A stretch of DNA of 64,000 nucleotides from Trichoplax sp. H2 (lineage: Eukaryota): positions 558,001 to 622,000 of the forward strand of contig NOWV01000016.1 in assembly GCA_003344405.1 (NCBI GenBank), in the 5' to 3' direction. The notes under the pieces are model-generated. The model made no database searches, was not told where the DNA came from, and saw only the letters and a list, made by a program, of their open reading frames with translations. Both the position numbers and the translations under genes were made by a program. Below, piece by piece: positions 1-46,818 of the stretch (position 1 is its first letter; each line of letters starts with the position of its first letter).

Positions 1-175
1 CTAAACACATCTCTAGTGCTACGTTATCGTAACATGATAATTCGTATGTATAGGTAGGTGTTACGAAGCCTCTGAGTCATTTCATGTAAGACGATTCTAT
101 CAACCATGCTCTACCAATGTAGGCTAGATTATATTCCATTATTAAGATCGATCCTTCGATGACTATTCTACCTAC

Positions 176-3100
176 TTTCTATAAAATATCATTTAATAAA
201 AAATCAGTAACAATTAGTACTATCAAAACTAATAAAACAATAACTTTAAACGAGATTAGGGTGAAGTTCTAGTACCTGTATATAATAACTATCGAGGACT
301 TCTAAAAGTCCTCTTGAACTTATATACAGTATGACATAGTACACACTGTGATATGTAAATGTACATAATATGCAATGATGAAAACTGCCTAAATATCAAT
401 TTTTTACTTTAATGAACAAAAGCTTCAATAATCTACCACTGATAACGTATATTCTGTCAACGTCAATATAAGCTTACTTCCTAAAGAATTGCGTCCAATG
501 CCACCACGATTGCAATATTGCAATATTACGAAAATAAGAGCTCAAGATCAGTATACATTACTTAGGCCATAACATTGAAAATTGTAAATACAACAAATTT
601 ACTATTACGAACTTTGTACAACAATACAATCAAAGTGATTTTGTAGCTACAGAAGCTTCATTTTATATTGATTTGCCTTAATTATGTTAATTAAAAAAGA
701 CATAATGAATCTGAAGTATCTATTACACAAGATTACAGCATAGCTAGTCAGATATAGATTGACTGCTAATATCCTTTCAACCAGTCATCAAACTATAGTT
801 TTTGGCTATATAAATTATATAATATTTCGAAAGAATAACAGTAAATCATATAGTAATTAATTACTTACTTCCTAGAATTTCCAAAGGTGACGTTATTTAT
901 TAAAAGGGAATAAAAAAAGCATTCTGTTAGCTTGTATAGCAGTTAACGGATAAATCTTAAATAAGAATAGAATTACATATAATTTTGCAATCCTATCTAG
1001 ATTAAGTTTGCTTATTACAGTATGCTATGCATCATAAAACAATAAAAATAAATCATAAATTACAATATTTTACAAAAGAGGTATTAGACGTCTATTATAC
1101 AGTATTTAATCGTACAAGTACATTACAAGGTATCGCAGGAAGAAGTATAGAGGTTAATCAAATTGATGTTACGTATCCCATTGCAGATCTATTCTTTGTG
1201 AATTACTGCATTTCATCACATATCATATCCCATATCCGCATATTTATTCATAAATACACTATGCATACAGTATATCGTATTCACTTTCATAGATAAAATC
1301 TACTTACTTGCTGTTATGATTGCCCAAATTTAAAGGTAAGTAAACGGTTGATGTATAATTTATTGCAGAGACAGACACACAAAATAAAGTTAGGAATGTC
1401 AGTACAATACTTTTACATTAAATTATACCACATCCGTGAAAATCTTTGCCCAAAAAAATCAAATTTAGAATTCATTATAACTTACTCGCTAAATTTTCAT
1501 ATTCCATTAGTGATCAGAATTTCATAAAGGTAAAGGAAAGATAATAAAATCTTATCGTCAATATCAGTATTTATCAGCGATTGTACCACATAGTTTCAAG
1601 CGATTAACATAACACTATATTAACGATGATATCCACTTCAGGCGTTCAACTAGGCAACATATTACTTTCTACCAATGCAATAATACTACGGTAGATCCTT
1701 TATGACGTACTATTATTAAATATACAGTATAATATTGACTTAATAACAAATTTCAACAAGAAGATTCGTTAATCATTCGTGATATTAAATAATATCCAGA
1801 ATCACTTTATGTGCCCAGTGAAGTATTATCGCTCCACTTACAATATCGTATAAAGATTGTGACTGCAAGTCTAACCTAGTGATACTTAAACTTAAACATG
1901 TCGTTTAATGCTATGTATAAACTAAAGAGAAGTATGCTATAGATAGTCATCGTAGAGATGTAACGCAAAGCATTCACATGATCAACGATAGTACTTACGC
2001 ACTATTTCCCACAATCCAATGTTTCAATTTGCGAAATAAAAGTAAAACAGAAATTAGTTAAAAATTATATTAATTACTCAAGAACCTGTAACACTTTGAA
2101 GCTAATTAATTTAATTATAAGTCCTTCCTTTAGCACAAATACTGTAAACTTTCTATAATTATAATGTACTGTACTATATCCTGACCAAACTAATATAAAT
2201 GTACGTACATGCAATTTTTTAATGCTATATTAAATTATAGACTACTTGATATTAAGGCGTTGGACAATACTGATTGTTATGAAGGTAAAGCTTCGGCCTA
2301 GATCTTATGTACGTAATACTAGAATTTTTGCAGTAATATCTAGTTAATCAAGCAACTCGACGTGCCATCTTTGTAAGCCTAGACATGGCTAATCACTCTA
2401 CAATGGGTATATACTGGATGAAAATGACTACCTACAAGTAATGCCTTTTTAAAATATACTGTATTAAGAAGGGAGTTAAAATTAGCAGCACTAGGGTAAC
2501 TTTTTCCTATTGATATCTGCCTTATAAAGTTCAAAATAGCTATTAATAAGTCTATGTACTTACTTCCTGCATAGTTTGCATCAATAGGCGAGCATGACCG
2601 GTTACCAAAGAGGTAATATAAGGATTTACAATTAGATTTATAAATCTTAAGATCAATTAATCTAAGTACTCAACGTAAAATATCTGAACGCAATGTAACT
2701 AAATTTTAAATCTTGAAATAATATAATTTCTTAAAGCTAGTAGAGCAAATTTAAGTAACGGAAATGCACTGTAAACATTAAAATGAAACTAAACCCTCCT
2801 AAAAGAATATAGTACGGTATTAATTGTAAGCTAGTATTCATCGCGTTTTCTGCAGGTATTTATAATTTCATGTTTCGGAAAGCTTCATGTATGTATTTAC
2901 AGTATATTATAAATAAAAAAATTGTCTCATACTATTTTCGTATTTTTAACAGTTTTTTGACAAAAATTTGAAAATTTAGAATGCAATATAAAGATTTAGC
3001 AATACTAAACTTACGGTCTAAATTTTTTATTACGTATCCGAAGCCATTACAGTTGGGCGTCATTATAACGAAATATAATTAAAAGATAGAATTGATCAGT

Positions 3101-6100
3101 TTAAGTAGCATCGTCTCAAATAAATAGCCTTTTATTGAGCTAATGTCGAAGAATCTAGCGCTAGCTATGCCATATACAGCAAAAGGAAATTTCTATTGTC
3201 CTTTATAAACTAATGCTGTAATAAAAACATATTTATTTCCTTTCGTAATAAGTGATATTACTAAGCTGATTTTAAAGGCATTATGCCTACTTAATGAAAA
3301 TCTCTTATAATCCTCTAAATACGAGAAATGTATTTCTATTATGAGTCACTGGTAATTTGAAAGCTTCAGCAGCTTTTCACATTTAATCTCTATTATTAAA
3401 ATAATAATTTTAATAATCGTAGATCTAGTTTCTTTCGATTATAATTTGTGGGTTTTATATAATCATATAAAATTAATACAGTTCTGATTTTCTTCTATAT
3501 TCACAGGGAAGTGAGACATGTTTTGGGCACTATATAATTAACATTCGAACTTACTTGCTATAGGATTTCAATTTCATTGATATTAATCCGAAATAAAAGA
3601 GATGCCGAAGAGTAAAGTATACGAACAAAAATAACAAAAATTGATTAGAAAAATTTTAAATTTAAAAAGCACCAACGGAATATTATGTTCAGTATGTATA
3701 GTTGTTAGAAAGAAATGATAATTTCGATAATTATAGGCCTTTTTTGTATCTAATTTATGCTAAATGCATGATGCTTTTCAATTAATTGCGGTCAAAAAGA
3801 GAAATCTCCGAGAAGCATTAAACTTTCAGAGAGTTATAAAATATCAGATTAACTATAGCTGAAGAACGATATAGTACAACTAAAATTATATCAGAGTCCT
3901 AACTTTTGAACATTACGACAGTGTAATTTACGATCAAGCAACTAAATATCCGAAATTATTAATATAATAAAATGCCTTATAGGATGCTATTCTACAACTT
4001 TTTTTTATGGGAATTTTCAAGATTTTTTTACGTGAAATAATTCATACGTTACTTACCGACTGTAAAATCATTTTCAATTTCATGATTAGCCATCAGATAT
4101 TACAGTATCATAAAAAATTCAAAGATATCCAAAACTATTAGAGCTAATTTATCAGCATACAAGCAATTTTGTTGCATTTAATGTAGATAAATCAAACTAT
4201 ATAACCATAATGGAAATAAAGATAAGGATAGTACTGTAATCAGTAGCAGAATAATACAAGATTCTAGCCACTATATTCAGTAATTGATACTTACCAGCTA
4301 ATAAATATATAATTGTTGAAGGCACCAAGGTTAAATGAAAGAAAACATTACGCAAGGAATGGTTAGAAACAACAATAGGAAAAATTCTCAGAATTATTTT
4401 AATGAATTATCAAATACAACAAAATATTAGTTTGCGATAGTGCTACTTACAGTCTATTGCAATCACGGTTGTACAACGCAGTATAGCATGTTGACGAAAA
4501 ATAGACAATTAAAAACTAATCTACTTAAATAGCTTCCAAAAACTTTCATATAGGCCGAATATTAAATTACTAAACATAATTAACTATTTTACTTAAATCT
4601 CTTTCTACACAATACAGTATACAACGATTTGGTAAAGCTTAGATTAAAAAATCATCAGTTAATTTAAACAAGATGTTTCTTTTATAATAATGATATTAAA
4701 TTGATACTAATTACTGACCTCCTAATTTATTGCCATATCCGATCATAAGACATACAAGTGAACAAATTAGAACAGAAATAAAAAACGAATAGGTAAATTT
4801 TATCCTGAAACAGACTATATTAAATGCTCATCTACCATTTATCGCCGATAAGTAACAGAATTGCATTTAGCAGGCTATATCTTAAATAATAATCTACGCT
4901 TAATATGATCATAAACATCATAATAAAAATGCCGACTATCAGTATGATCTCTACGAAAGCAGGGTAGAGCAATATAATAAAAAGAAATAAATACTAACCG
5001 GCTATAAAGATCACAGAACCGTCCGAGATTCCATAAAACGAGATGTGATGAAAAGATAGATGCACATTTTCATTAGCTTCTGAGACGTTTAAATTTTTTT
5101 AAATATCAACGCAGAAAGATCTCTATAGGTACTATATTCCTTTTAAAATGTCCCACTCAAACTGTTATCAGTACATGAAACTGGAAACTACTACACCTTT
5201 AACCTAAGAATATTTACTTAAAATTTGAAAGATGTCAATATCAATCTGAAATTTTATGAAGCTTAAGTATGCGCAGATAATAATACAACTACTATCAGAT
5301 AGAACATTTTTTTCCACATTTTAAATATTATCCGTAAAATAACGTAATATTTCAAGGTTGATTTAAAGACATGCGAGCAGTTTCATGACCACTAATTAAT
5401 ATAGTGTAATTTACCGAACTATTGAAGTTTGAATCGTTAATAACCATAATTAGTATATACTTAATTATAAAACTAATATTTTACGGCATATTCAGATTGC
5501 AACGTAATTCGGATATCATTAATACTGTACTTACAGGCTATTGGTTGCCAGTACAGATCCAGTAGGTAAGTAAAGGATGAGAACATAGATAAAAGTCAGT
5601 TTCAATATAAGTACCGCTGTATATCGAAAACAATTTTGCATGACATATAGAGTATTTACTAGGTATTTCAACAACTATCTAAAGTTATATTAAATTGATA
5701 CTATCATAAAAATTAATTGCTAATAATTCAAATTTCTTACCGTCGATGAGTCCTGGCACTAATACTGTTTGAGTTGATAGCAAAGATCATAATGGAATCC
5801 AAGTATTAAACAGATATAATACAACTCACATTATAAAGAACAGCCTTTAATAAATCGATCTTATTCAATCTCTCAATCGACTTACAGTATATCTATCCTA
5901 TATCGTCAATAAGTAAAATTGTAAATAATTAGTAATAAGCTGAAAGCGCATATCCTCTTTAGTATACTGGGGATTAAGATAATTAAAAATATCAAAAAGA
6001 TTTCAGTTTAACTTACAAATCATCGATACTATGTTATGAACCAGAAAATTGTGAAGCAAGATCCGTAAAAGTTAGTATTTTCAGATTGAACGTAAAATCT

Positions 6101-9100
6101 CTGTATAAATTCCTAGGCTTACCTATCATCGATCCTAAAATAGATACAAAAGTAGTTAAGAATTAGTTAAGAATTGGTACTACAAAATATAAAATTTACG
6201 GCTAAGTTGCCGTAAAAATCAACGGGTCATTGCCAACAGGTGGTAACTACCCGTATTGGTATTACTAAAGAAATGTAATGAAAATGCAACGATAGTGATT
6301 TTAAAGTATTTTAAAATTTTCCTCTGTGGTTGTAAACTTAGTACTTGTTAAATACTCCGTATACTTTAGTTTATATGTTAAGATTGTACTTACTGATACT
6401 ATCAAAAGTACCTTAAATGTATATGCGCAGTTTGTAGCATTATAGGTTTACAGCTTACAATAAATAGCGATTTTAGCTCACTAAGATGTGAGCATGAATC
6501 ATAAACTTGTAGTAAACTTATAAATCATCTATTAGGCTAATATTTTATTTGTATCCATACTTACGGCATGGAAATCCTGTTGTGTTTGGTCGTTAAAAGA
6601 ATACACGAAAGCCAGTATTCATATTAGAAATTTTGCGTAATATCACTCGTAAATATATAACATCAACAACGAATATTCCGACTTACGGTAAGTCCAATCT
6701 ACGAAATAGTTATTTAGGGTGTAGAGGGAAGATGTAATAATCATAAGTTCGTTTCTAGTCATTGAAATCTATCAGGCCGTACAATATCGCATTAACTTAC
6801 GGAACTTCAACCCTAGTAACGATAACAGAAAGCGTACAATTATTTATTGTTGAAATGACCGTTATGTAATTGCAAAATTATTGCTTATACCAATCTGGTA
6901 CTATTTTAGCAATTACATACTTAAGGTAAAACGATTTAATGAATGTAACAAATAGTTTTACAGCTAAATATGCGATAATTATAAAATACAAATATTAGAC
7001 ATCCCTGAGCTGCTTAACTTATGAAAATGACTATGATAAATTATAAATATTTAGACATGAATTTAAATCTTAATGTGAAGTATTTCAATTCTGTGATGAC
7101 AACGTTATAGAAAGGTGCAATTATTTGGTATTCAGCCACAAATTATAATTTTTATAATAAAGCGCGATAAATTAACTACCACGTATTTTATATTAAAATA
7201 TTTCGTATACTAACGGTGCTTCGTCAATAAACATCTCGCTGATGTTTTCAGGAATCCAAAATAATCAGAAAGATATATAAGCCATTACATAAACTGAGAC
7301 CAGTAATCGCGGTATTAAGTTAATTTTCAACTTACGATAATTCCACTCTGCGAGATATTAATAATGAAGAACTAATTATTTGCAAACATAGCAGCTCGAT
7401 TCGTACTGAAAGTCATTGGAATGTTATTTCTTAACTTACGGTGCTCCGATCCTAATGACAATGTTAGAAATTTAGAGTTAATTTGTATATAGAAATAACC
7501 ATATAGCAGAGCAATCTTAAAAATATATCAATTCTATTACCACAGTATCTACATTTACAGGCTATATATAAGCTATAATAACGTGTAGAATATAAGATTT
7601 GGAATAACTTACGATGCTTGCAAACTAAACGCAGAGCAATTAGTACCACAAATTGCAGAAATAAGATGACATAATTTTCATTAGTAATCAAGTAGCTTTA
7701 ATTTCTTAGGTTTACTTTCAAATAATTGGCTTACTAGGCTGCGATCCTATCAGCAAAAACAACAAATAAATAATTACATTTGAAGAACTTGCAAATTTAC
7801 CTTACTTTAATTACTAACAAAGTCAAGTAGTTACTATTCCTTATTAAAAACTTACGCTTCATCCATCCTAATAGGTTAGACCAAAAAACGGAACCATTTT
7901 AAAAATGACACATACCATTAGTGAATACGATTATCTATTTCCTAGCTGTTATTGTCTTCTATTATTCCAAAAATACCAAGCACTACTTACGTTGTATTAA
8001 CCCTACCAGTACAACGTCGAAAAAATTCAATTACAACTTAGAACTACTCCGATCTTAGCAATATGCAATGAAGATAAAACAAATTTAAATCTTACGTCTC
8101 TTTCTCTCTGGAGTTCAATTAATAAGAATGGAAGAAATTGAAAAGTATTACCAATAAATTTTGTAAATGGAAACCCATTGATAAGGGGGCTACAGGTATA
8201 CGTAGATTCTATCTTAACTTACGTATTATTAACCCTAAATAAGCAATCAATTTAGAAGTCAATTTTTTTTGACTTGAGATCATAGAAGGCTTACAGCAGT
8301 TAGCAAACAGTTTAAACCTATAGCAGTTCAACTTACGGTGCTGTCGCTCTAAAATTGGGCGATTAAAGGAGCAAAAATAAGATTTAAAATAATGTTGAAG
8401 ATGTTACTAATCATTGCTTGCAAATAAGAGGAAGTCGGTCTATATTAATCATTAACTCACGGATCTTCAATCCTAAATATAATAACGATTTCCATTAATA
8501 AATTAAAAAATATCTTAATAAATCCTAAGATAGCTACGAATTGATAACATACCAGCTCAATGCAATAATAATAACTAAAATGTAAATCTCTTTGTAAAAT
8601 ATTCATTCTACGTTATTGATATCACTGTAGTCAGTCCATAAATGATTACAGAGCACTGTTGTATTCTCGTCTGTCTAGTGTCATACTGATATGTGGAAAA
8701 AATCTAGTAAGCACGAGACAAGATCACAAAAGTGAAAACTTACATGGTGCTGAGAAATTAGTATCCACGATGAATAGTATTCCAATTAGTGATAAGAATT
8801 AAAGGATAGCAGGTAGTATTAAAGCAGAGAAGACATAAATTAACTTCTAGGACAATTTAAGGTTATAATTTGGAATATATCCAACTGCAAATAGTTGTAG
8901 ATAAAGCGATCAAATTTGCTAACTAGAAATAATGACAAGCTAGTTTTTGCCTAGCCATGTAGTAACACTATTGTAATAATAATTGTAATAATAATCGATC
9001 TTAACATAAATAAAATTATGCAAGTAGTAATACCGTAATAGCTACGTTTAAGGAATTCCACATCATACTATTGCAACATAACTGAAGCAAAGCTAACAAG

Positions 9101-12100
9101 ACAGAAATACTATCTGAGAAATAGCAACTTACGAAGTTCCATTCCTTCATATTTTATTGTTTCGGGCATGAAGTCAAGAAATTGAGAATTAAATTAGTGA
9201 TCAAATTTCATTTTTACTACTACTGCATTTTCTAAAATAAAGCCACTATTTGCTATTAGATAGATCTTAGGGTCAGCTTAAACTGACATTTGAAATATAT
9301 CAAATATTTATTTAATTTGTAACCAATACGTTTAAATCTACTATTAGGTTTCTCCAGCCCAGCACTAATTGCAGCAGTTATTATAATTAAAAATTAGCTC
9401 ATAATAAAAGCCCTATCTAACAACTATTTCAGAACCGTCATTTCAAGTTTACAACCACAAATTGCCTAGCTAATTGCAATCATTATAGGTGCGAGAAAGC
9501 AAAAGCTATTTTATTCATAATTTAAAATTATAAATAATTAGAAATCTGCTACAGTATACAGCTTCATCAAACCTAGTGCTAAGAACTGATTCCAATATTG
9601 CATATCATCGTAAAGCAAAAGCTAATTATTTTTTATGTATGTTTCAAAATTGGTCACTTAAGATAATGGGTACAGCAGCATAGCTTTGACTTTTGAATTT
9701 TATGTCTATCAAAGTATCGCTTGTAACAAGAATACTAACTTTGATGTCTCCACTTCAAAGAAATGATGACTTCAAGGAAGAGACGCCAGCGGGAATGCAT
9801 CCAATTGTAGTATTGTGAAGGAATGAATTAATAACCAGAGTAATTTTGGCATATTTATAAAGATAATTATAATTGAAAGCAAATAATCTTTAAGATGAAC
9901 TAACGCTAATCAGAAAATAAAGGCAATAACAGGAAATAGACTAAGTTGTACTTGTTTAAATACACTTAATTGGAATCAGACTACTATACTCGTATGTGCA
10001 ATAATATTGAGAATTTGTCTTAACTTACGTCTTTTTCGTTCTAAAAATAAAAAATCAAAGAAATACGAGTACAATTAGTCTCAGTGATTAGAGGAAAATA
10101 TTTTTAGTACTTTTCCTCGAAATATTATAATTTCACTACATGAAAGCTTAGCAGCAGGTCAAAAATATTAGTAGTAGCAAGTCGGCATTAAAATTAGTTG
10201 TATACGCGGGACGGAGTAAGAAATAGTCTTGCTATTACGTCGACGGCATACGCGAATCGTAAAATTACATAAAGTAATTTTATCGTCGTGTGTCCTATCA
10301 TAAACTTTTAGAACTACATCGTTCTAGAGGGCCTTGGTCCTGATCATTTGCGTGGACAGTATTGTATACGTTATTACTGTATTTTATACTGCGATTTACC
10401 AATAATTATATAAGTACTGGTGATACTACTTCCCTTAATTAAGAAGGAGTTAGTATTATTAATACGCGGTTTTAAACTACGGATAATATTGGAATCATTC
10501 TACTAGACGATGGTAGGAACTAAACAGGAATAATCAGAGTTTTTTCTACTATACAGTCTACAATAAAGGATAAGATTAGTCCTTGAAATCCGATGGCTAT
10601 GGACGATCACTTACGTTGCATTTGCCCTAAAAAAGAAGCAAAAAAGATGATGTATTTTACTTTTACATCTTACCAATAGCACTATCACATTTTCAAGACG
10701 CTCAATCTTCATTCGATAATCAGCAGTAGTTTTTACTATTCAATTTTGAAAGTTTACTTTGTTGTAAGCTAACATTTAGTTTTAACTATAGCCATGAATA
10801 ACTTACGTATCTTCAATTCTATGCACCCATGTTACAGTACATTTTTGGAAGAAATGAAAAAAGTATTAGTAGTCCAGAATAATCACGGATAACTTCTAGT
10901 GAAGCAAATAGAATCATTGGACAGCTTACTCATCCAATTCGGAGCTAAATCAAAGAAAGAAAAGCAATTTTAATGATCATGATAGTGTTCCGCCATTACC
11001 CTCTTTGAGAAGATTTCTGCTGATTAATATCATATACGCTATTAACGCTATTAAATTACTGACTTACTCTGCGTCAATGTCGAGCCAATGACTACAAAAA
11101 GTGGCAAAGAAAGATAGACAAGTTATTCATTTTGAACATATAGACGAATGACCATAGATAAATTTTTGAAAGTTATTGCTATACAATATTGCTTATAAAT
11201 TCTACAATGAATTCATTTCAGCTTGAGTTCTAGTAAATAACGTGTAGACTGCATTTCAAAGACAGTTTTTGAAGGCCTACTGTGTAATATAGCATGAACT
11301 TGTCAATTTCAAAGAGTAAAATGAAATATGCAAAATATCAGTTATGAATATTTGCTTGTCGAGTGATTATCTTACATGAAGTATAATGTTTAGTCAAGGA
11401 TATTGAGCAAGATAGCAATGCGAATGACCATAGATAAATTTTTGAAAGTTATTGCTATACAATATTACTTATAAATTCTACAATGAATTCATTTCAGCTT
11501 GAGTTCTAGTGAATAACGTGTAGACTGCATTTCAAAGACAGTTTTTGAAGGCCTACTGTGTAATATAGCATGAGCACGTCAATTTCAAAGAGTAAAATGA
11601 AATATGCAAAATATCAGTTATGAATATTTGCTTGTCGAGTGATTATCTTACATGAAGTATAATGTAGCCAAGGATATTGAGCAAGATAGCAATACGGTAC
11701 GGAATTATTCATTAATTATTTAATTAGTGAATTTTTCGCCATATTGAATTGCCGCTAGAACTGACAGAGGTCAATTGGCTTTCAATTGGCTTGCTTATGT
11801 ATGGTACTGTACAAAGTAAACTGTTCGTGAGTAGTGAGCACGTGTTAACTAGACTTGACCCACGGAATAGACGTGTGGTAGCGAAGTGTCATGCACGAGT
11901 CACGACATCATTGGATTGACTTCTAAGACCGTAATTGTTTCAAAGCAAGTGGTGTCAACGTGTCAACTCTGTCACTCAAGGCATGACGCGACGAGAAAAA
12001 ACGCGGGATCATACCGGAATTGACAATCCACAGGGAAGAATAGTATAGAAACTATAGAAATTACAAAGTAGAAAAGCGAAATTCCATACAAACGTATTTG

Positions 12101-13164
12101 CGCCGTCTATCCGATATATAGAATCCCAATAACTTTTCTATGATGGCGCTCTATGCATTCAATGACGAACTGGAATTGTATCCATTTAAATGGATAGAAA
12201 AAATAAAAACATTCAATGCTATCCTTCTGCTAAAATTATCCTGTTGTCGCACCGTATTCGACAACGACTACAAAGTCTGTAGTCCATATCGTAAGAAAAG
12301 AAACTAGAATAAGTCCTGCCGCCCCAAGGTTACAGTAGAATAGGCTAAGGCGCTTTTTTATGGTGCCGCTAATATGATAACCGTTGTGCTCTAAAAGACT
12401 AAACTACTATTCATTTAAAGCAAACAGTAAAAATAATGTTATACAATTCTTCGGATAAGTTATCATGATGCTTTAAATTACCTTCGGTTTCCCCTAAATT
12501 ACACAGATAGAAGGAAAGAAACGGTCATTTGATTAATATACAATATAACGGCAAAGTGTGCACCCTATACGCGCACAAAATGGAGACAAATATTCTCATA
12601 TATCAAGATAGATAACTTACGATCGTTTGCTTTCGTATCATTAAAATTGGATGGAAAATCATTTCATGGATTCATTCATTACTAAGTCGAAATTGTATGA
12701 AATATTATTAAATTTTATTAACTATTACAACGAGTTTCCAGTGAATAATGTCCAAAAATTGACTTACTTTTTCATACGATTTCAAAGAGTTGAACCATCC
12801 GCCAAAGTCACATTGCGGAAAATAGCACAAAAGTAAGATTCACCATTCCGTCAATATAATTATTATAATAATGTCGGTTATGCGTGCGTATTTGCTGAAT
12901 ATGATTGCTAATAACCTACCTCAAGATACCCCTAGATAAAAAGATAGTGACAAAGTCAAAATTATCATTTTATTCCTGATTAAATTTTAAATTTAGAACA
13001 AGTCTATCGGTATTAAATTCTCTAACTCGGATTTAAAAAAAGTGCAATTGAATTCTTTCATCGAAAAGATAAAATGACAAATATAATTACATTTCAACTG
13101 GTGCCATGAAATGGCAGACAAGAGCGATCGTTAAACTGATCGTTATCAATTTCATCGATGTCAT
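176..13164 (-). CDS. Micro-exon gene encoding a putative secreted acidic/Thr-Pro-rich protein with a basic C-terminal segment (about 45 exons; 3' end beyond window start)
   Basis: Exon 1 (13164-13091) encodes MTSMKLITISLTIALVCHFMAPVE+AT followed by GTAAT. Plus-strand left coordinates of the AG-exon-GT units follow. 12 nt: 12920,12482,10807,10615,10029,9133,8461,8337,8223,8096,7991,7856,7735,7613,7440,7336,6801,6687,6565,6123,6017,5886,5741. 9 nt: 12621. 24 nt: 11068 and 7215. 15 nt: 10930. 6 nt: 8744. 3 nt: 5535,4999,4719,4451,4295,4057,3555,3015,2564,1999,1666,1486,1308,869,478,176. Joined translation: MTSMKLITISLTIALVCHFMAPVEMGILSKRSGNRSHWLDIDADSELDEIEDTANATTKKTNGTSTMIEDPATAPVNNTEKETVNTTMDEAIAAYLQASIGAPVELSEMFIDEAPVEVPLDLPISMPIDDSIDDLIDILTHRRLRRLCRKPNANDKKK... 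(no stop). The exon inventory is manual and may have omissions. Confidence 0.8.
11145..11693. repeat. Near-perfect direct tandem duplication, period 276 bp, in an intron of the micro-exon gene
   Basis: CGAATGACCATAGATAAATTTTTG...GCAAGATAGCAAT occurs at 11145 and again at 11421 with only a few differences. Confidence 0.95.
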
Positions 13165-16100
13165 CTTGATCGAAAGAACGTTAGAAAGTTTAATTTTTTG
13201 TGCTTCAGATATCAAATTCTTCACTCCTTCACCTAAGATGGCGCGACGAAATTTTTCAAACTCTGAAGAGAAAGGGATTAGGCTTAAATAGTATCTCAAT
13301 TTATAATAAAAATACCTCGATCGGTCCTAAATAGATGCCACTAATGAATGCATTGTCCTTTTAGTGATATTAAAGATTCTCAATTCGACCACCCGCTAGC
13401 TCATTCTAAATTGAATTAAATGTCAAGGGCTCCAAAGCATTCAAGCGAATACGACAGATACATTGAATATTCCTCTGATTATATTTCTATCACTAGATTA
13501 ATTAAGGATAATTCGTTTTAGCAACAGATTTGCCCTTACAATTCGATGAGTCTCTCATTCATTTTTTTATTTTAATCTCCAATTTAATATGATACCGGTA
13601 CTAATGCAAGCCGGTATGAAATAGATCTTAGACATGAAAACAGTTGCAATTTATCATTAATTTCCCTTATTAATCTTAATCCTAACTATTTAATCCAAAT
13701 ACACGAGACTTTTTTTCATATTTAAGATCCATCTTGCATTACCGGTAATTTATCCCACTCCAGATGTTCATAAACCATGACAGACTATATTGCAGTTACG
13801 GATAAGTGCAACCCATTATTCTCTAATTTTAGCCTTTTTTAAAAATACCTAATTATACGACGTATGTACAGGGATTATTTTTTACTAATAAATAGCATAA
13901 AATAGACAAAACATATGATTAACAATTCTAATCATAGAATCTATTTATACTCAATCGTAAATAAAGTATTTACCTACTTACGTTAGCAACGACCGTTACG
14001 CAATAAGAGTTCCGCTTAATTTTTGCCTTAATAAAAATTATCATACTTTTTTAGCCGTATTGCAATTTTATTAAAGGTTTCAGCTTATTTCGATAACGAT
14101 AATATTCGTACATTTTAAAACCGCACGAATAGTAGATATAAAATTTTGGTACAATACTGGTACAGCTCTTCTTTAAATATATCACAGTATCTCATAAATA
14201 TTATACATGGATATAGGGTACCATAGGCAAAGTTAGAATTATCCTTAACCACAGTGGAGTAAATAGCTGTAGAAACATGATAATCAAAGTATTTAAAGCT
14301 TCTTCCACACTACTGAGTGATAACTTCTAATACCCTAACCCTGAAATTAGACTTAACACAGTGTTTCACATATGTGTCTTTTGACCAATTACTGTACAGT
14401 GCTCGGTTAATGATGTGACTTTTATTGTAGAAAAAGTGCTATTTGAAAAGCAAATTATTTATGATATATAAAAAAATCGATTACGCATATCAACAGATTA
14501 GCCAAGATTTCCTGATTATGACGAAATTAATTTCATAATAATTTGTTACAGGTAATAAAAGGAACCAGATTCAATTTTTTGTGATACCTTCTCAGAATCT
14601 TGTAGCCCATCCATTGTTGCCAAATTGATGATGTAAGGCTAAATAAATGCTACCATGTTAACCTAATTAAAATATTAATTATTACTGAATGATGAAATGG
14701 CCATGTTCATATGTTACTAATAATTCAATTTATATCTTATGATTATCATCTCTTCAAATCGGTCAGGTACATGTTCTATTTATGTAAGCATGAACGTCAT
14801 GGAATAATTTCTTCAATTCAGCACCTGATAATCTGTCATACTATACATATTCCTACTCTAACAAAACAGGATTCTAAATTTAACGCATAGCTTCAATTCA
14901 GCTAGCTCTGAATTAAGTAATACCACTAACAACTACGATATCTTACCCTCATGCACTAAATCATATCTTTAATTAACTACCTAAGACACTATCCCAGTTT
15001 ATACTGACATTAATCTACAAATAGGTAGGAGTAGTGCTTTAATACATTGATCAAAATAGGATATCGGTAATTTGACAATCCATTAATTGTACAATACTAT
15101 AATAACAGTAATGAAAATCGACAGTAACCTCGTATACTAAGTATTAAAGCTTACGCCATCGTAAATGCTTCAAAATCACTTAAAATATTAGATCAAATTA
15201 GATAGAATGCTTATAAATTCACAGACGCTTTAGTTTCTTGTAGATACTCGTGTTGAAGCCAGATCTATCTTGCGTATTGAGTGTTCAACAGATAGGAAAT
15301 GTTTTTCAAAAAAGTGCTATACATTTTCATAGAAATAGAATATCCCTAGACCTATTAGATAGAACTCTTAAAAATTTAGCAAACGATTCCGTTTCTAATA
15401 TTGATACCAAATTCATCTTACTTATCAAGCTTCCGGTTAGGCAAAATATATTTAGAATGCTTATTGCCTTGTAGCTATATACACTTGGCATAAGAAATAC
15501 GAATAATAGACGTATATTGCGACAATGTCAAAAAGCAATAAATCTAAAAAGATTCTAACTTACAATTACTACAATCTATACGTTATTTAGCAAATACCCA
15601 TTAATTGTTGTATTCCTTTTTGTGGAGATCATTTATATTTTTCTTTCCAACCTACCGGCTACTCACAAACAATCTATTATAAGCTATATGAAATGAAACT
15701 GAGGAAACAGGTTCAATATACTGTACTGCACAGCAAGCATAAAGTATCGTACTGCAGTAGCATTATAAACTATGTAAATTTATTATACCTAAGAACTAGA
15801 TAGTAATACAATTATTCATATCATGATATTCATTCGATCATAAATGAGTTTACTTGTAGGTAGAAGAATTATTCTTACATGTTATATATCTTAAATTTTC
15901 CTATACAGGTATACGAGTATTTACTAACTTTGAAGACTCCTTCTGCTCTTAGGATCATGTGAAGATGAGATAAACTGCGTAGGCAATCGAGCTGTTTACT
16001 TTTAAGTAGAATCCTACAACCGTAGAAAAGACCATTTAGATTAATTACTCGTAATTTTATAATTTATCATAGGCAATAAACTATATCGTACTCTTCTCTT

Positions 16101-29090: not shown

Positions 29091-30529
29091 ATGTGTACCA
29101 AGATACAAAAAATGATGATGAAATTGCATCAAATGAAGAAATCTGAGTTTGGGCTAGCAAATAAAGTAAAATGGGATCAATAATAATTAATTAATCAGAT
29201 CATTTGCAACAGGGTACAACACTCTCTCATTCATCAGTCATATTGGAACATTTTTAGCGAGACTGTATAGAGTCATGAACTCGATGCCCGTGATATAGTG
29301 AAAGTGTGAAAGACAGATTGTTGTCACGAGGTGATAGAGTACGAAAACGGCATATATGGACAGAATATTGGGAGTGATTTTACTCTATCCAAGCCTTGGG
29401 ATATGATGATGACGATAGAGAAGTTTGCCCTACGAGAGATTACTAACTATAAAGAAATACACTAACTCTACCCTCTGTATACGTGCATTATTGTTATCCA
29501 ATTTTTTGTTGCTTTTTCCACTGTAGAGGCAGATGGAGTAATGCAGTTGGAAAAGTTTTATTCACTTTATTGCACTGTGAGTGCAAAGGGGGATAGCATG
29601 GACAACTGCATCTGGCATCGTTAAGGCATTCTTGTAATAAACCAGATGTGCTTAGCGGCGATAGTGACCAACTAATCGTCAAAGGCATGTCTACTCGTAG
29701 TAGCCCATTCTATTAATACACCTTAAGCTCCAATACTTCCCTCAAGTTACTCCATCAATTTTGAAATACATCTACAATTACAATAGTGCAACGAATGGGA
29801 TAGGATGTGTTATCATCCAAGTATAAAATCCAGTCCATTGGCTAAATGCCTAGTCAATTTGCAAAATGCCATACATCTTGTATTATTAACCGATGGCAAT
29901 GTTTTAATGCTAATGTTAAGTGTAGCAGTAAATGTCATAATCAGAGAGCTTGTAAAAATAAANNNNNNNNNNNNNNNNNNNNATGTGTACCAAGATACAA
30001 AAAATGATGATGAAATGGCATCAAATGAAGAAATCTGAGTTTGGGCTAGCAAATAAAGTAAAATGGGATCAATAATAAGTAATTAATCAGATCATTTGCA
30101 ACAGGGTACAACACTCTCTCATTCATCAGTCATATTGGAACATTTTTAGCGAGACTGTATAGAGTCATGAACTCGATGCCCGTGATATAGTGAAAGTGTG
30201 AAAGATAGATTGTTGTCACAAGGTGATAGAGTACGAAAACGGCATATATGGACCGAATATTGGGAGTGATCCCATTCTATTTATACACCTTAAGCTCCAA
30301 TACTTCCCTCAAGTTGCTCCATCAATTTTGAAATACATCTACAATTACAATAGTGCAATGAATGGGATAGGATGTGTTATCATCCAAGTATAAAATCCAG
30401 TCCATTGGCTAAATGCCTAGTCAATTTGCAAAATGCCATACATCTTGCATTATTAACCGATAGCAATGTTTTAATGCTAATGTTAAGTGTAGCATTAAAT
30501 GTCATAATCAGAGAGCTTGTAAAAATAAA
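29091..30529. repeat. Duplicated sequence flanking a 20-N assembly gap (29963-29982)
   Basis: 29091-29378 matches 29983-30270 and 29704-29962 matches 30271-30529. The segment 29379-29703 is absent from the second copy. Confidence 0.9.
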
Positions 30530-32481: not shown

Positions 32482-35400
32482 GAAGCTCCAAGAAAAGTGT
32501 TCCAAATCTCAACATTTATGTCACATTATGGAATCATTTAATTTATTAGAAAATCAAGACAGTATTATTGCTAACTTTCACAACTATATCAAACTCTTAA
32601 ATGATGATTTTGATGATGGAGTCTTATACATCGACAATATTACTAAATTGTCAGCAAATTTGTGCGGTATTGAACAAAAGTTACATATATATGGTAATAA
32701 ACTAAAGTAATGCTAATTCTTAATATAAAATTATAAAAATTATTGAATAATCCTTCAAATATGCTCACATCTTTTTCAATTTTAATCATAGCAACAATTG
32801 AACGAGATATTCTCTGGAGGCTGGTAGTGATTGTGTCGACTTTACTGGAATGCAATCACAAAGATATAGCATTAACCCTCCTTGACTGTATTGTTGAGCA
32901 TGGTTCAATGTATAATCAGTATAGCTATGCTATGGCTGTTCATATGCTAGCTTCGACCCATCTTAAGAAATCTGATTACTCTAAGGCTTTGCCTTTATAC
33001 GATTCTTGCTTAAAACTTGTAAACGATCTTAGCATCTATGATATTGAAATCAAATGTCACCTTGATTTAAGTCGCGCCTATATTGCCATCAATGATACCA
33101 AAATGGCTATTTTACATTATGAAAGCGCGTTGTATGTTGGAAAGAAAGGTAGTAAAAATTATGACAATAAGAAAAATTCGGATGAAATCAGTAGATATGT
33201 ACTTAGCAAGCTTAATGCATCGCATGATAACGATTCAAATACGCCCAGCATCACTAGCAGTTCAATTCAAGATTGGACAGTGGAATTTGAGAATGAAAAT
33301 CTAGCAGGTAGCTCTCAATATGTCTTTAAAGTTTTAGGCAGCAATGATAAGTTGACCGGAGAACATTGGCTTCATAGTGAAGAAGAAGTTATAGGAAAGC
33401 TAAGTGTAATGTATAAAGTTCTTGGATTATATAAAGAAGCTTTAAAATATGCTACATCGCACATCAAGGTCTTGAATACTAGAGTAGGAAATCATGACGC
33501 TAATTTACTACTTAAACAAAAGCTCACCAAAGAAATAACAATTCAATCTAGTGGTGAAAATCATGAAAAGAAAGTTAATAATAGTCAATTGAAACATTCA
33601 TCGGACGAAGTAAATCAAAAATGCGAGAGCCATGACCTCACAGAATCAACAATAAAAAATGATGACGATAAGAGTAAAGATACTGAGGGAGAACCTGGCG
33701 ATTCATTACAAATTTTGCTGTTGGAGGCCCACGCTAATCTTGGATCTATTTATTTATTATTACAAGAGTATAAACTTGCTATCGCTGCATATGAAGCTCT
33801 AGCTGTTTTAAGCAGGAAAGCCAACAAAACTCTAATGCTTGGTACCGCATATGGAAGTATTGGTGTAGCGTACTCTAAAATGGGCAATTATAGTTTAGCT
33901 TTAGCTTACTGCGAGCAACAGCTACATTTATCTATGAAAGCTGCCGATTCATCATCACAAATGGATGCTTTGCTAAAACTAGGAGATATCTGTCAGTCGT
34001 CTGGTGAATTATTAAAGGCTATAAATTATTACGATAAGACATTAACTCTTTCACTAAGAACATATAGTATCCAATACGAAGCTTGTTGTAAATTGACTGC
34101 AGTCTATTATACCATGAAACATTATCGACAAGCGCAAATTAGTGCCGAACAAGCTCTACGATTAGCAAAGCAAATGTTGGATTATGATAAAGAAATGATC
34201 AGCAAATATCATCTATCCTATTTGCATTGCCTTCAAAATAATTACGAACAGTCTATTGTTTTTCTATATGAAGTTGTTTCATATTTTGAAAATGACTTAT
34301 CGCGTTATGAAATTGAATTATTAAATTCTTACCGTTATATACAGGAAGTATTGATAAAACTAGATAGAGTAGATGAAGCATTAATGTATGCTGAGAAGTA
34401 TAATTCCTTTCGTTTAGTAGAATTTGTTAAATTGAGGGATCAATTTCATGGATCACGACGTGATAATTACTCATTATCATTAGAGGAAATTTTAAGTGCT
34501 ACACAAAGTATGTCATCCGATTCCATGCTTCTCTACTATTCAGTGGTTCATGGATATATCTACTTGTGGTTAATATCACCTACACGAGACATTATTCGAT
34601 TCCATCAAGTTAAATTGAAAGGCATCGGATATCTATGTAATCAGATGCAAAATTTTAGTAACATAGGCAGATCTGCAGTGTTGAGAAAAAAACGTACCAC
34701 CTCACCAGAAAATTCCGACTCCAAAATTATTCCTAATAATGCCGGAAAATCTGAAATGCCTTCAGCTAGAAGCGTTCTTGAAGATAAAGATCTGTTCAAT
34801 CAAAATGATTTGCAAAGATTATACTATCATACGGAAAATCGAAAGTTGTTTGATTATCGTCAAAGTCATTCAGTCCGTGATGATCCAACATTTCTTCATG
34901 AATTATATGAACGTATCCAGTGCAGTAGTGTGTTATCGGCTCTAAAAACCCTGTATGCTAAACTTATCTCACCTATTGAAAATGATCTCAATCTAGCTAG
35001 TATCGATCATTTAATCATAGTTTGTGGAAACCATTTAGCCTTTGTGCCGTATTATACATTATGTGATGCCTGTGGTACAAGTTTATATCAAAAATTTAAA
35101 GTCAGCATTTTCTCGTCTCTTCTAACACTGCAAATTGCCAATAGTAATGCTATGAAACATTCAATGTATAACTATGCTACTAGTTATCAAAAACCAAGGG
35201 TTCATGTTTACCCATACGATCTATCATTACAACAGTTTAAGGAAGGCGATAAAAAGGAAACTTCCGATAATATCATTCAATCTGAATGCATCTTAGTAGC
35301 TGGTAATCCTGTTTTCAAGCAAAAACTAGCAAGCAATGAACGTGTTTGGAAATCAAAGAATCCGTTATCAATGTCGTTAGACGAAGTTAGGCAAATTGGA

Positions 35401-38400
35401 TTACGACTGAATACAACGCCTTTAGTAGGCTCGATGGCAACCAAGGAACGGGTACTCCAGGAATTAACCAAAGCTTCAGTTGTCCATCTATCAACATTAG
35501 GCTGTTTATATTATAACTGTTTAGCATTTACTCCCAATCCTTATCGATTGAATACGGATACAGCGGAAGAAGATTCCTATTTAGTGACAATGGATGACTT
35601 GAAACAAATAAAATTAAAAGCAAAAATTATCGTTCTCAGCTCGTGCAGCCAGAATAGCTATAGCGATAAAAATGCTCTACATCAGTTAACTTATCATTTA
35701 CCCAATATGCTACTGGCTTGTGGAGCATGTTCTGTTCTTGTACCGCTATGGCCGATACCTGATTTGGCATCTGATGCCTTTTGGTTCCATTTTTACAGTC
35801 ATCTTTACAAACATCAACGATTAAGTCTAGCATTAAAATCAGCATTAAATAGCATTCGAGAAGATAATCGACTGGTCGAACCCGTATGCTGGGGATCTTA
35901 TGTGCTCTTGGGACAAGATATGGCTATAGATATTAAACAGATAGAACATCACATGTTGAATAAATCTATTGATGAACAAAAAATGCGAATGGAAACATTA
36001 CTTACCAGTAAACAGACATCATCACCCCGCGATAAATCATTCGAGGGTAATAAATTTCACGTAGTTACCAATTATGAATTGCAGAATAAGTTTGTGGCAG
36101 TATGCAAAAATAATTTGAATTTTTATATATCAAACAAACTCATCAATTGATTTAATTCTATAGAAATAAATGTCGTACCCTCTGTGAAGATGAATGAATT
36201 ACAGAAGTTATTAGCTGAATTATTTAAATGCTATAAAATGCCTGATTTTATTCAGATTGTAAAGGAAATGTTGCAGCTGGTAAGAAACTTCCATTTAGAT
36301 CGAATTTTGTATAGTACAGTAGCGTATGAGAAGGTTTACCTCTTTAAAATAGTGTTTTACAATTGTGATATCTTTTCGTTCTGACCACGATAATAATTAT
36401 TTGAAACTCACCATGTTTTCATTTAAGATTGACCGTGCAGTAGCATATGTGCAAGATTTACAGCAAAATCCTGATACGATGCAGCTATCGACCGAAATGG
36501 CAGAAATACCAGCATGTCGAAAATTATTGTCTTTGATTGGTTTTAACTTTCAATCTAATCCAAATCAGTTGGACAATAATTGTGTTATATTTCCACATTG
36601 GGACTATGATAGTCTCCTAAGGCCATGTCAACTAGCCTTGAGATCTATTAAGGGTAAGCTAGTAGTAGTATTTCAAGGCTTCATTGTTATTGAATCATTT
36701 CAGAACTTTTTCTCAATTTGGAAAACTATTGATGCGCATAATCTAGTTAGAAAAATTACTTATAAGGACTCAATCGTTTTCTATATTTTTACCTAAGGAA
36801 TAGTGAAATTTCCGTCCTGCCTCTTTGCAATTTCCAAGTTATTGCCGTTAGATGATAAACTGCATAAATATTTGATTAAACTGGTATATATAACTAAACT
36901 ATATGATATCCTGTTCAATTAAATTGTTCTAAAATCAATTTATATTAACATCCAAGTAATATACTTATGATTTAATTAAATATTTACTTGATAGTTACAT
37001 GCGACTAATTCAAGCTACATCGACATTACGGATTCCTATGTTCATAATGTTTGGCAAGTTAACCCTAAGTCCCGGCAGCTATTGATAAGCCTAGGATATC
37101 ATCAAGCAGGAACTTTATTGATACCAGATCGAAATTTAAATGCCCAAGTGAGAGATTGTTGCCAACTTTTACTAGCACTACTTGGTAAGACTTAAGTACA
37201 GAAGCTAAAAATTTCATTCGATAATGAATCATACTGTAGACAGCGTATTTATCATCTTCCTATTATGGTTGATAAAGTCTATATGTGGTCGATATCATGT
37301 ATTAATAATTGTTATTAATACTATGCATGAATCAGCTAGTAGTTTAAAGAATTAAAATATGCTAACTGTAATATTCAAGTAGTTGTGTCATGTTATTTAA
37401 TTCATAGGCATGTGTATGATTTCACTGTTCTTAATATGCCATAATTTTAATTATCTATTTTAAATTAAAAAAAAATGTAGCTCCGGAATCTAATTCAATT
37501 AAACCTAAGCGTAACAGGACCAAATCAGCTCCAGAGTCAATGCTGAACGAACAGAAATTTTCATCTCGTCCAACAGCGTTGACGCCGGTAATATAATTGT
37601 TTATGTGAAATATGAGTAACTATTTCTTTTATTCGCTGAATTAAATGCTTGTAGCGATGAATTAAACGTCTATAGCATTATTAGGCTACAATAGCTTTAG
37701 CATTGTTCATACGTTGACCGAAGTTAAAGGCTGAAAATATTTAATATTAATTTAATGCAGAAAATGATACATTCAGATAAGACTGATTTTATTTGAACAA
37801 CCTTCCAATTACTGATGAACAATATTTTTACGCGGTTTTAAACAAGTTTGATTAAGCTAGATTTATAATCTAACATTCATTTTTTACAAATTAATTTGCT
37901 TAGAAGTAATGTACTATATCATGAAATCGTAGATCATCACTAATTACAGAAGTATTTGAGATAAAGTATAAATGATTTAAGCTTGTTTGCCTGCCATAAT
38001 GGGATCGTGTATATATACTACGACAAACAGAGCAATGGTACTCTCTTGTAACGCGTAGTGTGAGATGGATTTTCTCTCTATTATATTTTACTCGTTCATG
38101 AAATTGGAGAGAAAAAATAAGCTAATATACTATAGCAATGCTTTATGAAGAGTTTTATAAATTCTTGTATTAGACTTGATGATAAGTCAACGGAAATTGT
38201 AACCGATTATTTATATTTTACTAGGAAATGAGCGACGCATCATCATTGTCATCTTTTAAACTTCCGCCTTTGAATGATCAATCCAGTGACAGGGTATCGT
38301 TTTAACACCTACGACTGTTATTTATTTTCTAAGAACTTGCTAGCACAAGGAAATTGACCTATTTTATCATCTTAGGTTTTGATGACCTCAACTTGGTCTC

Positions 38401-41689: not shown

Positions 41690-46818
<5,129 letters not shown>

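Follow-up and report, generated by a model that had tools for sequence, protein, structure and literature searches.

Micro-exon genes (MEGs) have been described from flatworms. As defined by Olson et al. in 2020 (10.1101/2020.04.08.031872), micro-exons are shorter than 70 nucleotides (nt) and divisible in length by three, and a MEG has seven or more exons, half or more of which are micro-exons, with a run of at least four. In the sections cited here, flatworm MEGs are stated to "appear to be restricted to platyhelminths" and to have a signal peptide and very small symmetrical exons (PMC4350168); another account counts 10-20 exons in them, of which most measure 15 bp, and sets the smallest at 6 bp in its text and the range at 3-81 in its abstract (PMC10526429). 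Here we describe an array of consecutive 3-nt exons, hereafter triplets, on the minus strand of DNA from the placozoan Trichoplax sp. H2. The stretch analyzed, hereafter the window, comprises 64,000 nt (GenBank assembly GCA_003344405.1, contig NOWV01000016.1, positions 558,001 to 622,000). We consider it very probable that the array forms the 3' portion of a single genuine micro-exon gene on the minus strand, expressed but unannotated, and that the triplets are ordinary spliceosomal exons kept in the RNA. The gene is an extreme variant of micro-exon gene architecture in an unexpected phylum.

How does this locus compare with the flatworm genes? Our model holds 44 exons, 42 of them micro-exons in a single run, and ten of the 3-nt exons were found in one RNA string; each threshold in the definition of Olson et al. 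is thus exceeded. As in the MEGs of Schistosoma mansoni, Echinococcus multilocularis and Hymenolepis microstoma, the coding region consists mostly of tiny symmetric exons, a signal-peptide exon comes first (here signal-peptide-like) and the product is small and secreted (here predicted). Absence from automatic annotation and the failure of RNA-seq reads to align are further points in common, as far as the cited sections of the flatworm reports describe them (10.1101/2020.04.08.031872, PMC4350168, PMC10526429). The placozoan gene differs in its host, in having 44 exons rather than 10-20, in a commonest exon length of 12 nt rather than 15 bp, in its 15 exons of 3 nt and in its short introns (92-574 nt, with two exceptions). 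The relation is likely one of convergence, and we class the gene as MEG-like in its working rather than as kin to the flatworm MEGs.

Three other systems share single features with the array. Ratchet points in the long introns of Drosophila are sites of zero-nucleotide recursive splicing (10.1101/006163 and PMC8605326, in the parts cited). The triplets resemble them in that an acceptor stands directly before a strong GTAAGT-type donor and, by inference in our case, in stepwise removal, each product being the next substrate. Unlike ratchet points, the triplets have 3 nt between acceptor and donor, present in RNA as coding sequence, in place of a zero-nucleotide juxtaposition that leaves nothing in the mRNA; nor do they subdivide a very long intron, since the introns measure 153-562 nt rather than tens of kilobases, with 15 sites in 5.4 kb. 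Isolated 3-nt micro-exons are known from Drosophila homothorax (hth; micro-Ex8), human MAP4K5 and RPS24 (3, 18 and 22 bp) (PMC7392893, PMC8632122, PMC12207440). There, too, the effect of a 3-nt exon is one residue added or altered; in the portions of these sources cited, such exons stand singly, or in groups of at most three adjacent micro-exons, flanked by normal exons and as a rule alternative, whereas at least 10 are consecutive here. Plants have ultra-short constitutive coding exons of 1-15 nt with conserved GTRAGT donors that annotation has missed (PMC8831610). The plant exons treated in the cited part of that paper are at most two adjacent (5 and 12 nt) and lie in conserved housekeeping genes, unlike a gene made almost wholly of micro-exons. 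Our literature searches found no report linking Trichoplax or Placozoa with nuclear micro-exon genes, and no description of runs of 3-nt exons, though the supplementary tables of flatworm MEG papers might hold short ones. Among the matches listed, MEG papers from 2018 on concerned flatworms, plants or fungi only.

The triplet array and its RNA contigs

A preliminary description of this DNA, made from its letters, had listed 16 minus-strand sites of the form YAG-NNN-GT. Reading the strand over 1-6600 and scanning for the motif, we found all 16 (16/16) at the coordinates given there, the sixteenth being TAG-AAA-GTAGGT at 178-176. The donors were also as listed: 12 begin GTAAG (11 GTAAGT, one GTAAGC), and the other four are GTTAGT, GTCAGT, GTAATA and GTAGGT, one each. 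The introns preceding the triplets measure 153-562 nt, as claimed. Minus-strand GTAAG occurs 13 times in 1-5600, and in 12 of these cases YAG lies exactly 3 nt upstream. The exception, at 1841, had been singled out as the one that did not fit; it has a CAG 21 nt upstream. Between this CAG acceptor and the GTAAGT at 1841 lies a candidate 21-nt exon (1842-1862, minus strand) that is open in the frame of the gene; it was seen in none of the RNA contigs of the four runs described below.

Such motifs had been estimated to be very rare by chance. YAGNNNGTAAG has 15 matches over both strands of the whole window; 12 fall on the minus strand between 473 and 5540. Dinucleotide-shuffled sequence gave a mean of 3.23 matches (standard deviation 1.77, maximum 8), and 15 or more were reached in 0 of 100 shuffles; the expectation of 3.23 refers to 128 kb (both strands), whereas the 12 observed lie on one strand of 5.1 kb. 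A repeat comparison of the window found no repeat family longer than 36 nt common to the triplet-flanking introns, and we rejected an origin of the triplet units by tandem duplication on this ground. The introns are not copies of one another; hence the splice-like motifs stand in otherwise unrelated sequence. The sequence around the motifs is AT-rich (GC content 0.28-0.29), and the GC content of the triplets is 0.51 versus 0.30 for the locus. Further upstream, from 10.9 kb to 5.7 kb, every strong minus-strand donor has a YAG 12 (or 15, 24 or 30) bases before it. The triplets form the 3' end of a far longer chain of micro-exons on this strand.

RNA evidence came from Logan assembled contigs (k=31) of four runs, aligned to positions 1-14500 of the window. 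Runs X4 and X5, both random-primed RNA libraries, come from one study (P2); for X14 (study P6) and X6 (another study) the RNA label was guessed. Contig depths and uncovered parts were not taken as an expression ranking between genes. X14 record 1 aligned at 5741-5764 and continued with 30 extra letters on the low-coordinate side. X5 record 10 carried the same 30 letters, adjoining 1709. In a scripted comparison, these letters matched exactly ten triplets in order: CCT, CCG, GAG, ACT, CTG, TCG, CAA, ACC, GAA, TGC. Since contigs built from 31-letter words hold a 30-letter string only if the reads do, single RNA molecules join ten triplets, in two studies. The joints and loose ends outside the triplets were also checked letter for letter against the window.

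These contigs settled several points. It had been proposed that the triplets are true exons contributing 3 nt each to the RNA, a proposal that would fall if the mRNA jumped from the exon ending at 5741 past all of them. The opposite was found: in X14 the ten joined triplets stand directly behind that exon, which is 24 nt long (5764-5741) and not 12 nt as had been assumed. In an X4 contig, 4295 is joined to 3557 with three letters between them (TCA; TCG in the window), with GT..AG ends and unspliced intron on both outer sides. X4 also differs from the window at 5536 (G>A, CCT to CTT), so that, with the change at 4057 (TCG to TCA), two of its triplets differ, and X5, which carries the same coded organism label, has the letters of the window; the X4 substitutions are strain-level amino-acid changes in the tail of the product.

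X5 record 10 extends the evidence toward the 3' end. In it, TGC connects to 1709 behind the acceptor TAG (1712-1710), after which the sequence runs unspliced to 1486. The next 21 letters correspond to 1313-1308, 880-869 and 480-478, so that donors at 1485, 1307, 868 and 477 were used and GAA (480-478) is a 3-letter exon. The contig ends unspliced from 178 to 1, with 388 letters more beyond the start of the window. No splicing at the sixteenth donor, at 175, was seen in this contig, and its course does not bear out the suggestion that positions 1-3 may hold the next acceptor. An in-frame stop lies 6 nt into the exon from 178; together with the unspliced contig, this makes that exon probably the terminal one, leaving 15 triplet exons rather than 16 or more. 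Thus, of the "at least 16" exons first proposed, 15 are likely to stand; AAA at 178 most likely starts the terminal exon (stop at 174-172), and AAA at 1668-1666 is without RNA support. We conclude that the triplets are supported as true consecutive exons, directly for ten and partially for four more. At least 10 exons of 3 nt follow one after another, and probably fourteen or fifteen.

Several observations weigh against this interpretation. AAA (1668-1666) was never seen spliced in the RNA contigs. CAA (1308) and GAA (869) appear in X5 with 6 and 12 letters, where the window has AA (1315-1314) and GG (882-881) and no AG. Only 10 of the 15 triplets were found in one joined string, and the contigs with triplets are shallow (depth 2.9 in X14 and 11.1 in X5). 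The RNA support consists of assembled contigs and not of raw reads, and these do not resolve isoform shares, strand or rare forms. X6 gave 22 contigs, none spliced, and may be DNA. Cryptic acceptors in two contigs (5616 in X4, 1709 in X5) would give early stops, which indicates that part of the output is mis-spliced or alternative. On the protein side, the 15 triplets alone do not make a significant open frame (random sets were stop-free in 5124 of 20000 cases), so that this frame by itself adds little; a search with exon 1 among proteins of 85-2000 amino acids found no homologue; and the signal peptide was judged by eye.

The two cryptic acceptors, CAG (5616-5619) and TAG (1709-1712) on the minus strand, lie 79 and 41 nt upstream of a triplet, and the sequence through the triplet stays unspliced.

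Gene model and predicted product

The gene runs on the minus strand from about 13276 to below position 1, some 13.3 kb with about 44 exons (Table 1). All 42 internal exons (42/42) are 3-30 nt long and multiples of 3 (423 nt in total), and all have the same phase. For 40 of the 44 exons at least one side was seen in RNA contigs. Exons 8472-8461 and 1668-1666 were placed by motif alone, and 6698-6687 and 6812-6801 were seen in RNA solely inside a loose end. Spliced contigs of the 5' part reached depths of 270-503, versus 5-37 for unspliced contigs of the same locus.

At the 5' end, positions 13214 and 13242 (34 letters from the contig end) are included in an X4 contig with a depth of 270.5, which splices onward from 13090/13091 to the next exons. 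Exons 2 to 4 fall inside the 30 letters that it holds between 13090 and 11093. A longer form of exon 3 (12681-12621) follows from the joints 12681->12768 and 12492->12620, found in X4 and X5. In X14 record 1, the 71 letters between 5764 and 7214 fit exons 22 to 27 (6 x 12, with a one-letter overlap at 7214). The 24-nt exon ahead of the triplets recurs in an X4 loose end at 5617, with two letters changed and preceded by the end of exon 5897-5886. Further small exons that would preserve the frame, at 9144-9133 and 8749-8744 (between 9739 and 8472), are possible from the sequence.

The open reading frame extends from the ATG at 13164 to the TAG at 174-172, 167 codons in all, and is open throughout. 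In a whole-frame test, pieces of matching lengths were drawn at random from the locus, and none of 20000 such sets was stop-free. For the triplets, the preliminary description had chosen the reading RLRRLCRKPNANDKKK with every codon split over two exons. Frame analysis agrees: that frame is the only open one, and each codon in the triplet part is divided between two exons.

Exon 1 reads like a signal-peptide-like start: a short, polar beginning with one lysine is followed by about 12 hydrophobic residues, as judged by eye. Residues 26-146, encoded mostly by 12-nt exons, have a net charge of -20 and four N-x-S/T sequons. In residues 147-167, the last 21, the net charge is +10, with one cysteine; most codons of this polybasic tail come from 3-nt exons. 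Precursors of cationic secreted peptides have a similar layout, with an acidic pro-region ahead of a cationic tail, and we speculate that the product may be a secreted pro-protein whose acidic part would mask the cationic tail. When exon 1 (including 24 codons of the 5' untranslated region [UTR]) was used as a query, no protein of 85-2000 amino acids in a collection of 5.8 billion matched; hence the gene seems to be unannotated.

Splicing signals and rival readings

Exons of less than about 50 nt are considered difficult for the spliceosome to handle. How, then, could triplets be spliced? The joints listed have ordinary GT..AG ends. Donors are GTAAGT at 11 of the 15 triplets and near-perfect at 12 of the 15. 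On the other side of the account, the pyrimidine share at -23 to -4 averages 0.46 for the triplets versus 0.67 for exons 2-28, and the exon-side donor consensus is nearly absent, with only GAG ending in AG. Across the gene the introns measure 92-574 nt, apart from two of 1390 and 1267 nt; since they are so short, recognition is probably by intron definition. The main carrier of recognition is probably the near-invariant GTAAGT, whose almost perfect complementarity to U1 and U6 would make good what the triplets lack in exon-side consensus and in pyrimidine tract.

Given the established footprints of U2AF, U1 and the assembled spliceosome, a 3-nt exon could not carry an acceptor complex and a donor complex at once. 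Because it is smaller than the spliceosome footprint, the introns on either side of it must come out one after the other. The junction made by each ligation would then be the splice site for the next step, in an order along the gene that is not fixed. Overall, the process would be akin to recursive splicing, except that a 3-nt footprint is left behind. In X4, both introns around triplet 6 had been removed while both outer introns were retained, and the partly spliced contigs have no fixed 5'-to-3' order of removal. Hence the special sequential splicing mechanism considered earlier is not needed. X4 record 8 (depth 20.2) lacks 6 of the 16 introns of the 12-nt block, no two of the six being neighbors, and the seven introns between 8336 and 7452 strictly alternate between removed and retained. 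Chance alone would make six introns among 16 non-adjacent about 6% of the time, and contigs may be mosaics beyond roughly one word length; the alternation is a hint only. As to origin, in-frame sliding of the acceptor may have turned longer micro-exons into triplets, a speculative proposal suggested by the 6- and 12-letter versions in X5.

Perhaps the triplets are cassettes, skipped independently to give tail peptides that differ by single residues, as has been proposed for schistosome MEGs? We think a combinatorial peptide generator of this kind rather unlikely. It would be workable, since the internal exons are symmetric and of one phase and any subset of them keeps the frame. Exon-skipping variants have been claimed for flatworm MEGs (DeMarco et al. 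2010, as cited in the relevant passages of 10.1101/2020.04.08.031872 and PMC4350168), and X5 does contain alternative forms, namely the 1709 acceptor and the 6- and 12-letter versions of two triplets. Against it, all ten triplets are present in both contigs that cover triplets 1-10, although contigs drop rare variants, and no joint that skips a triplet occurs among the 15 of 20 joints listed.

A second alternative is that the splicing is largely non-functional: the gene would be young and fast-evolving, its triplets tolerated remnants of shrunken exons in an unimportant tail, and its output largely mis-spliced and degraded. The products of cryptic acceptors with early stops in X4 and X5 fit such a picture, as do the two triplets that differ in length between the window and X5, the X4 substitutions in two triplets (5536 G>A; TCG>TCA), the weak pyrimidine tracts and the lack of significance of the triplet-only frame. 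It does not sit well with near-perfect donors at 12 of 15 triplets amid otherwise unrelated intron sequence, with the GC content of the triplets (0.51 versus 0.30), with a whole 167-codon frame that stops 6 nt into the last exon or with the depth of the spliced 5' contigs. We judge it improbable.

That the array is an artefact (mis-assembly, a processed pseudogene, contamination by cDNA, or recursive or ratchet sites that leave nothing in the mRNA) is barely credible: the evidence does consist of contigs alone, and the RNA label of X14 was guessed, but the 30 letters match ten separate genomic triplets exactly and in order in two studies, X14 runs on into the upstream exon, X4 and X5 are recorded as RNA libraries, the same junctions occur in partly spliced intermediates, and the triplets, being retained, are not zero-length ratchet points.

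We thus return to a micro-exon gene whose triplets are ordinary exons. A more ambitious proposal adds that placozoans independently evolved MEGs down to one codon-length per exon, with stepwise splicing, with exon length shifting in frame between closely related strains as acceptors slide (12 or 6 nt in one, 3 nt in another) and with regulated skipping of triplets that would tune or diversify a secreted cationic tail. We put it forward tentatively, as a possible but doubtful whole. If it is true, exon and intron definition could be studied here in a natural minimal-exon model, and an early-branching animal would have a new source of peptide variation.

On the reading of the triplets as ordinary exons, the spliceosome is able to recognize and join many successive exons below its own footprint, with little more than YAG and GTAAGT. 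The locus opens to test the order of intron removal, what substitutes for exon definition and the origin of MEGs, and also the placement of the exon-junction complex with ten junctions in 30 nt. Micro-exon gene architecture is extended from parasitic flatworms to a free-living placozoan, which argues against its being purely an immune-evasion device, and the locus points to a gene class overlooked by annotation pipelines and read aligners.

Exon coordinates and other observations in the window

Table 1. Exons of the Trichoplax micro-exon gene in transcript order, with window coordinates, splice sites of note and RNA evidence
Feature	Size or sequence	Positions	Strand	Splice site	Evidence
Exon 1, 5' UTR and ATG (13164-13162)	24 codons + 2 nt	13091-13276	-	donor GTAATT at 13090	X4 contig
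Exon 2	12 nt	12920-12931	-		X4, 30 letters between 13090 and 11093
Exon 3	9 nt	12621-12629	-	acceptor AAG	X4, same 30 letters as exons 2 and 4
Exon 4	12 nt	12482-12493	-	donor GTAATT	X4, 30 letters; joint 12492->12620 (X4, X5)
Exon 5	24 nt	11068-11091	-		joints 11093->13090, 9769->11068 (X4); X14 record 3 piece 11068-11091
Exon 6	15 nt	10930-10944	-		X14 loose end at 11068
Exon 7	12 nt	10807-10818	-		loose ends: X14 at 11068, X5 at 9769
Exon 8	12 nt	10615-10626	-		X5 loose end at 9769
Exon 9	12 nt	10029-10040	-		X5 loose end at 9769
Exon 10	30 nt	9740-9769	-	donor GTTAGT	joints 9769->11068 (X4), 7238->9739 (X4 depth 270.5, X5 depth 503.2)
Exon 11, predicted	12 nt	8461-8472	-	donor GTGAGT	motif scan, in frame; no RNA joint among those listed
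Exon 12	12 nt	8337-8348	-		donor in joint 8233->8336 (X4 record 8)
Exon 13	12 nt	8223-8234	-		acceptor in joint 8233->8336
Exon 14	12 nt	8096-8107	-		donor in joint 8001->8095
Exon 15	12 nt	7991-8002	-		acceptor in joint 8001->8095
Exon 16	12 nt	7856-7867	-		donor in joint 7745->7855
Exon 17	12 nt	7735-7746	-		acceptor in joint 7745->7855
Exon 18	12 nt	7613-7624	-		joint 7450->7612 (X4, X5); X14 loose end at 7238
Exon 19	12 nt	7440-7451	-		joint 7450->7612; X14 loose end at 7238
Exon 20	12 nt	7336-7347	-		X14 loose end at 7238
Exon 21	24 nt	7215-7238	-	donor GTTAGT	X14 record 1 piece 7214-7238; joint 7238->9739 (X4, X5)
Exon 22	12 nt	6801-6812	-		loose end at 7214 (X4, X5)
Exon 23	12 nt	6687-6698	-		loose end at 7214 (X4, X5)
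Exon 24	12 nt	6565-6576	-		loose end at 7214 (7/12 letters); donor in joint 6133->6564
Exon 25	12 nt	6123-6134	-		acceptor in joint 6133->6564
Exon 26	12 nt	6017-6028	-		donor in joint 5896->6016
Exon 27	12 nt	5886-5897	-		acceptor in joint 5896->6016
Exon 28	24 nt	5741-5764	-	acceptor CAG 5767-5765	X14 record 1
3-nt exon 1	CCT	5535-5537	-		30-letter overhang of X14 (at 5741) and X5 (at 1709)
3-nt exon 2	CCG	4999-5001	-	donor GTTAGT	30-letter overhang, X14 and X5
3-nt exon 3	GAG	4719-4721	-	donor GTCAGT	30-letter overhang, X14 and X5
3-nt exon 4	ACT	4451-4453	-		30-letter overhang, X14 and X5
3-nt exon 5	CTG	4295-4297	-		30-letter overhang; one side of X4 joint 3557->4295
3-nt exon 6	TCG (TCA in X4)	4057-4059	-		30-letter overhang; 3 letters inside X4 joint 3557->4295
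3-nt exon 7	CAA	3555-3557	-		30-letter overhang; X4 joint 3557->4295
3-nt exon 8	ACC	3015-3017	-		30-letter overhang, X14 and X5
3-nt exon 9	GAA	2564-2566	-		30-letter overhang, X14 and X5
3-nt exon 10	TGC	1999-2001	-		30-letter overhang, X14 and X5
3-nt exon 11, candidate	AAA	1666-1668	-	weak donor GTAATA	motif alone; X5 record 10 unspliced across site
3-nt exon 12	CGA	1486-1488	-		donor use: X5 joint at 1486, GT..AG ends; acceptor use not shown
3-nt exon 13	CAA	1308-1310	-		in X5 as 6 letters, 1313-1308
3-nt exon 14	GAA	869-871	-		in X5 as 12 letters, 880-869
3-nt exon 15	GAA	478-480	-	donor GTAAGC	X5 record 10, three letters between 880-869 piece and 178
Probable terminal exon, stop TAG 174-172	3' UTR leaves window	1-178	-		X5 record 10 unspliced 178-1

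Intron 4 holds the only long repeat, a tandem direct repeat (11145-11389 and 11421-11665; 245 nt, 98% identity) with a GTAAGA donor in each copy, at 11375 and 11651. X14 record 3 joins a piece at 11781-11652 through the 11651 donor to exon 5 (11091), an alternative 5' piece without an in-frame ATG for the main open reading frame. Contig depth over intron 4 (observed in 11617-12849) was 46-80 in X4 and X5, far above that of other introns, and the joints 12681->12768 and 12492->12620 give alternative upstream pieces of about 12849-12768 and 12681-12621. This coverage may reflect a second promoter or a stable intron-derived RNA. Rfam gave no match in 1-14500 at E <= 0.1, and a scan of 11000-14500 found no open reading frame of 62 or more amino acids.

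Two oddities were noted among the contigs. In one X4 contig (depth 37), plus-strand 9918-10594 continues into the minus strand from 12849 downward; this opposite-strand join at 10594/12849 is probably a chimera of assembly or library. The same 10-11 unaligned letters precede contigs at two unrelated places, 2471 and 9357 on the plus-strand side, one in X4 and one in X5; they may come from an adapter, from a repeat or from something like a leader sequence.

Elsewhere in the window, a dynamin exon (41693-41857) matches a named Trichoplax adhaerens protein at 100% identity, which marks the window as a nuclear scaffold of that species or of a very close relative. A run of 20 N at 29963-29982 marks an assembly gap, and an uninterrupted open frame of 1137 codons occupies 32737-36150 on the plus strand, in an otherwise intron-rich region.

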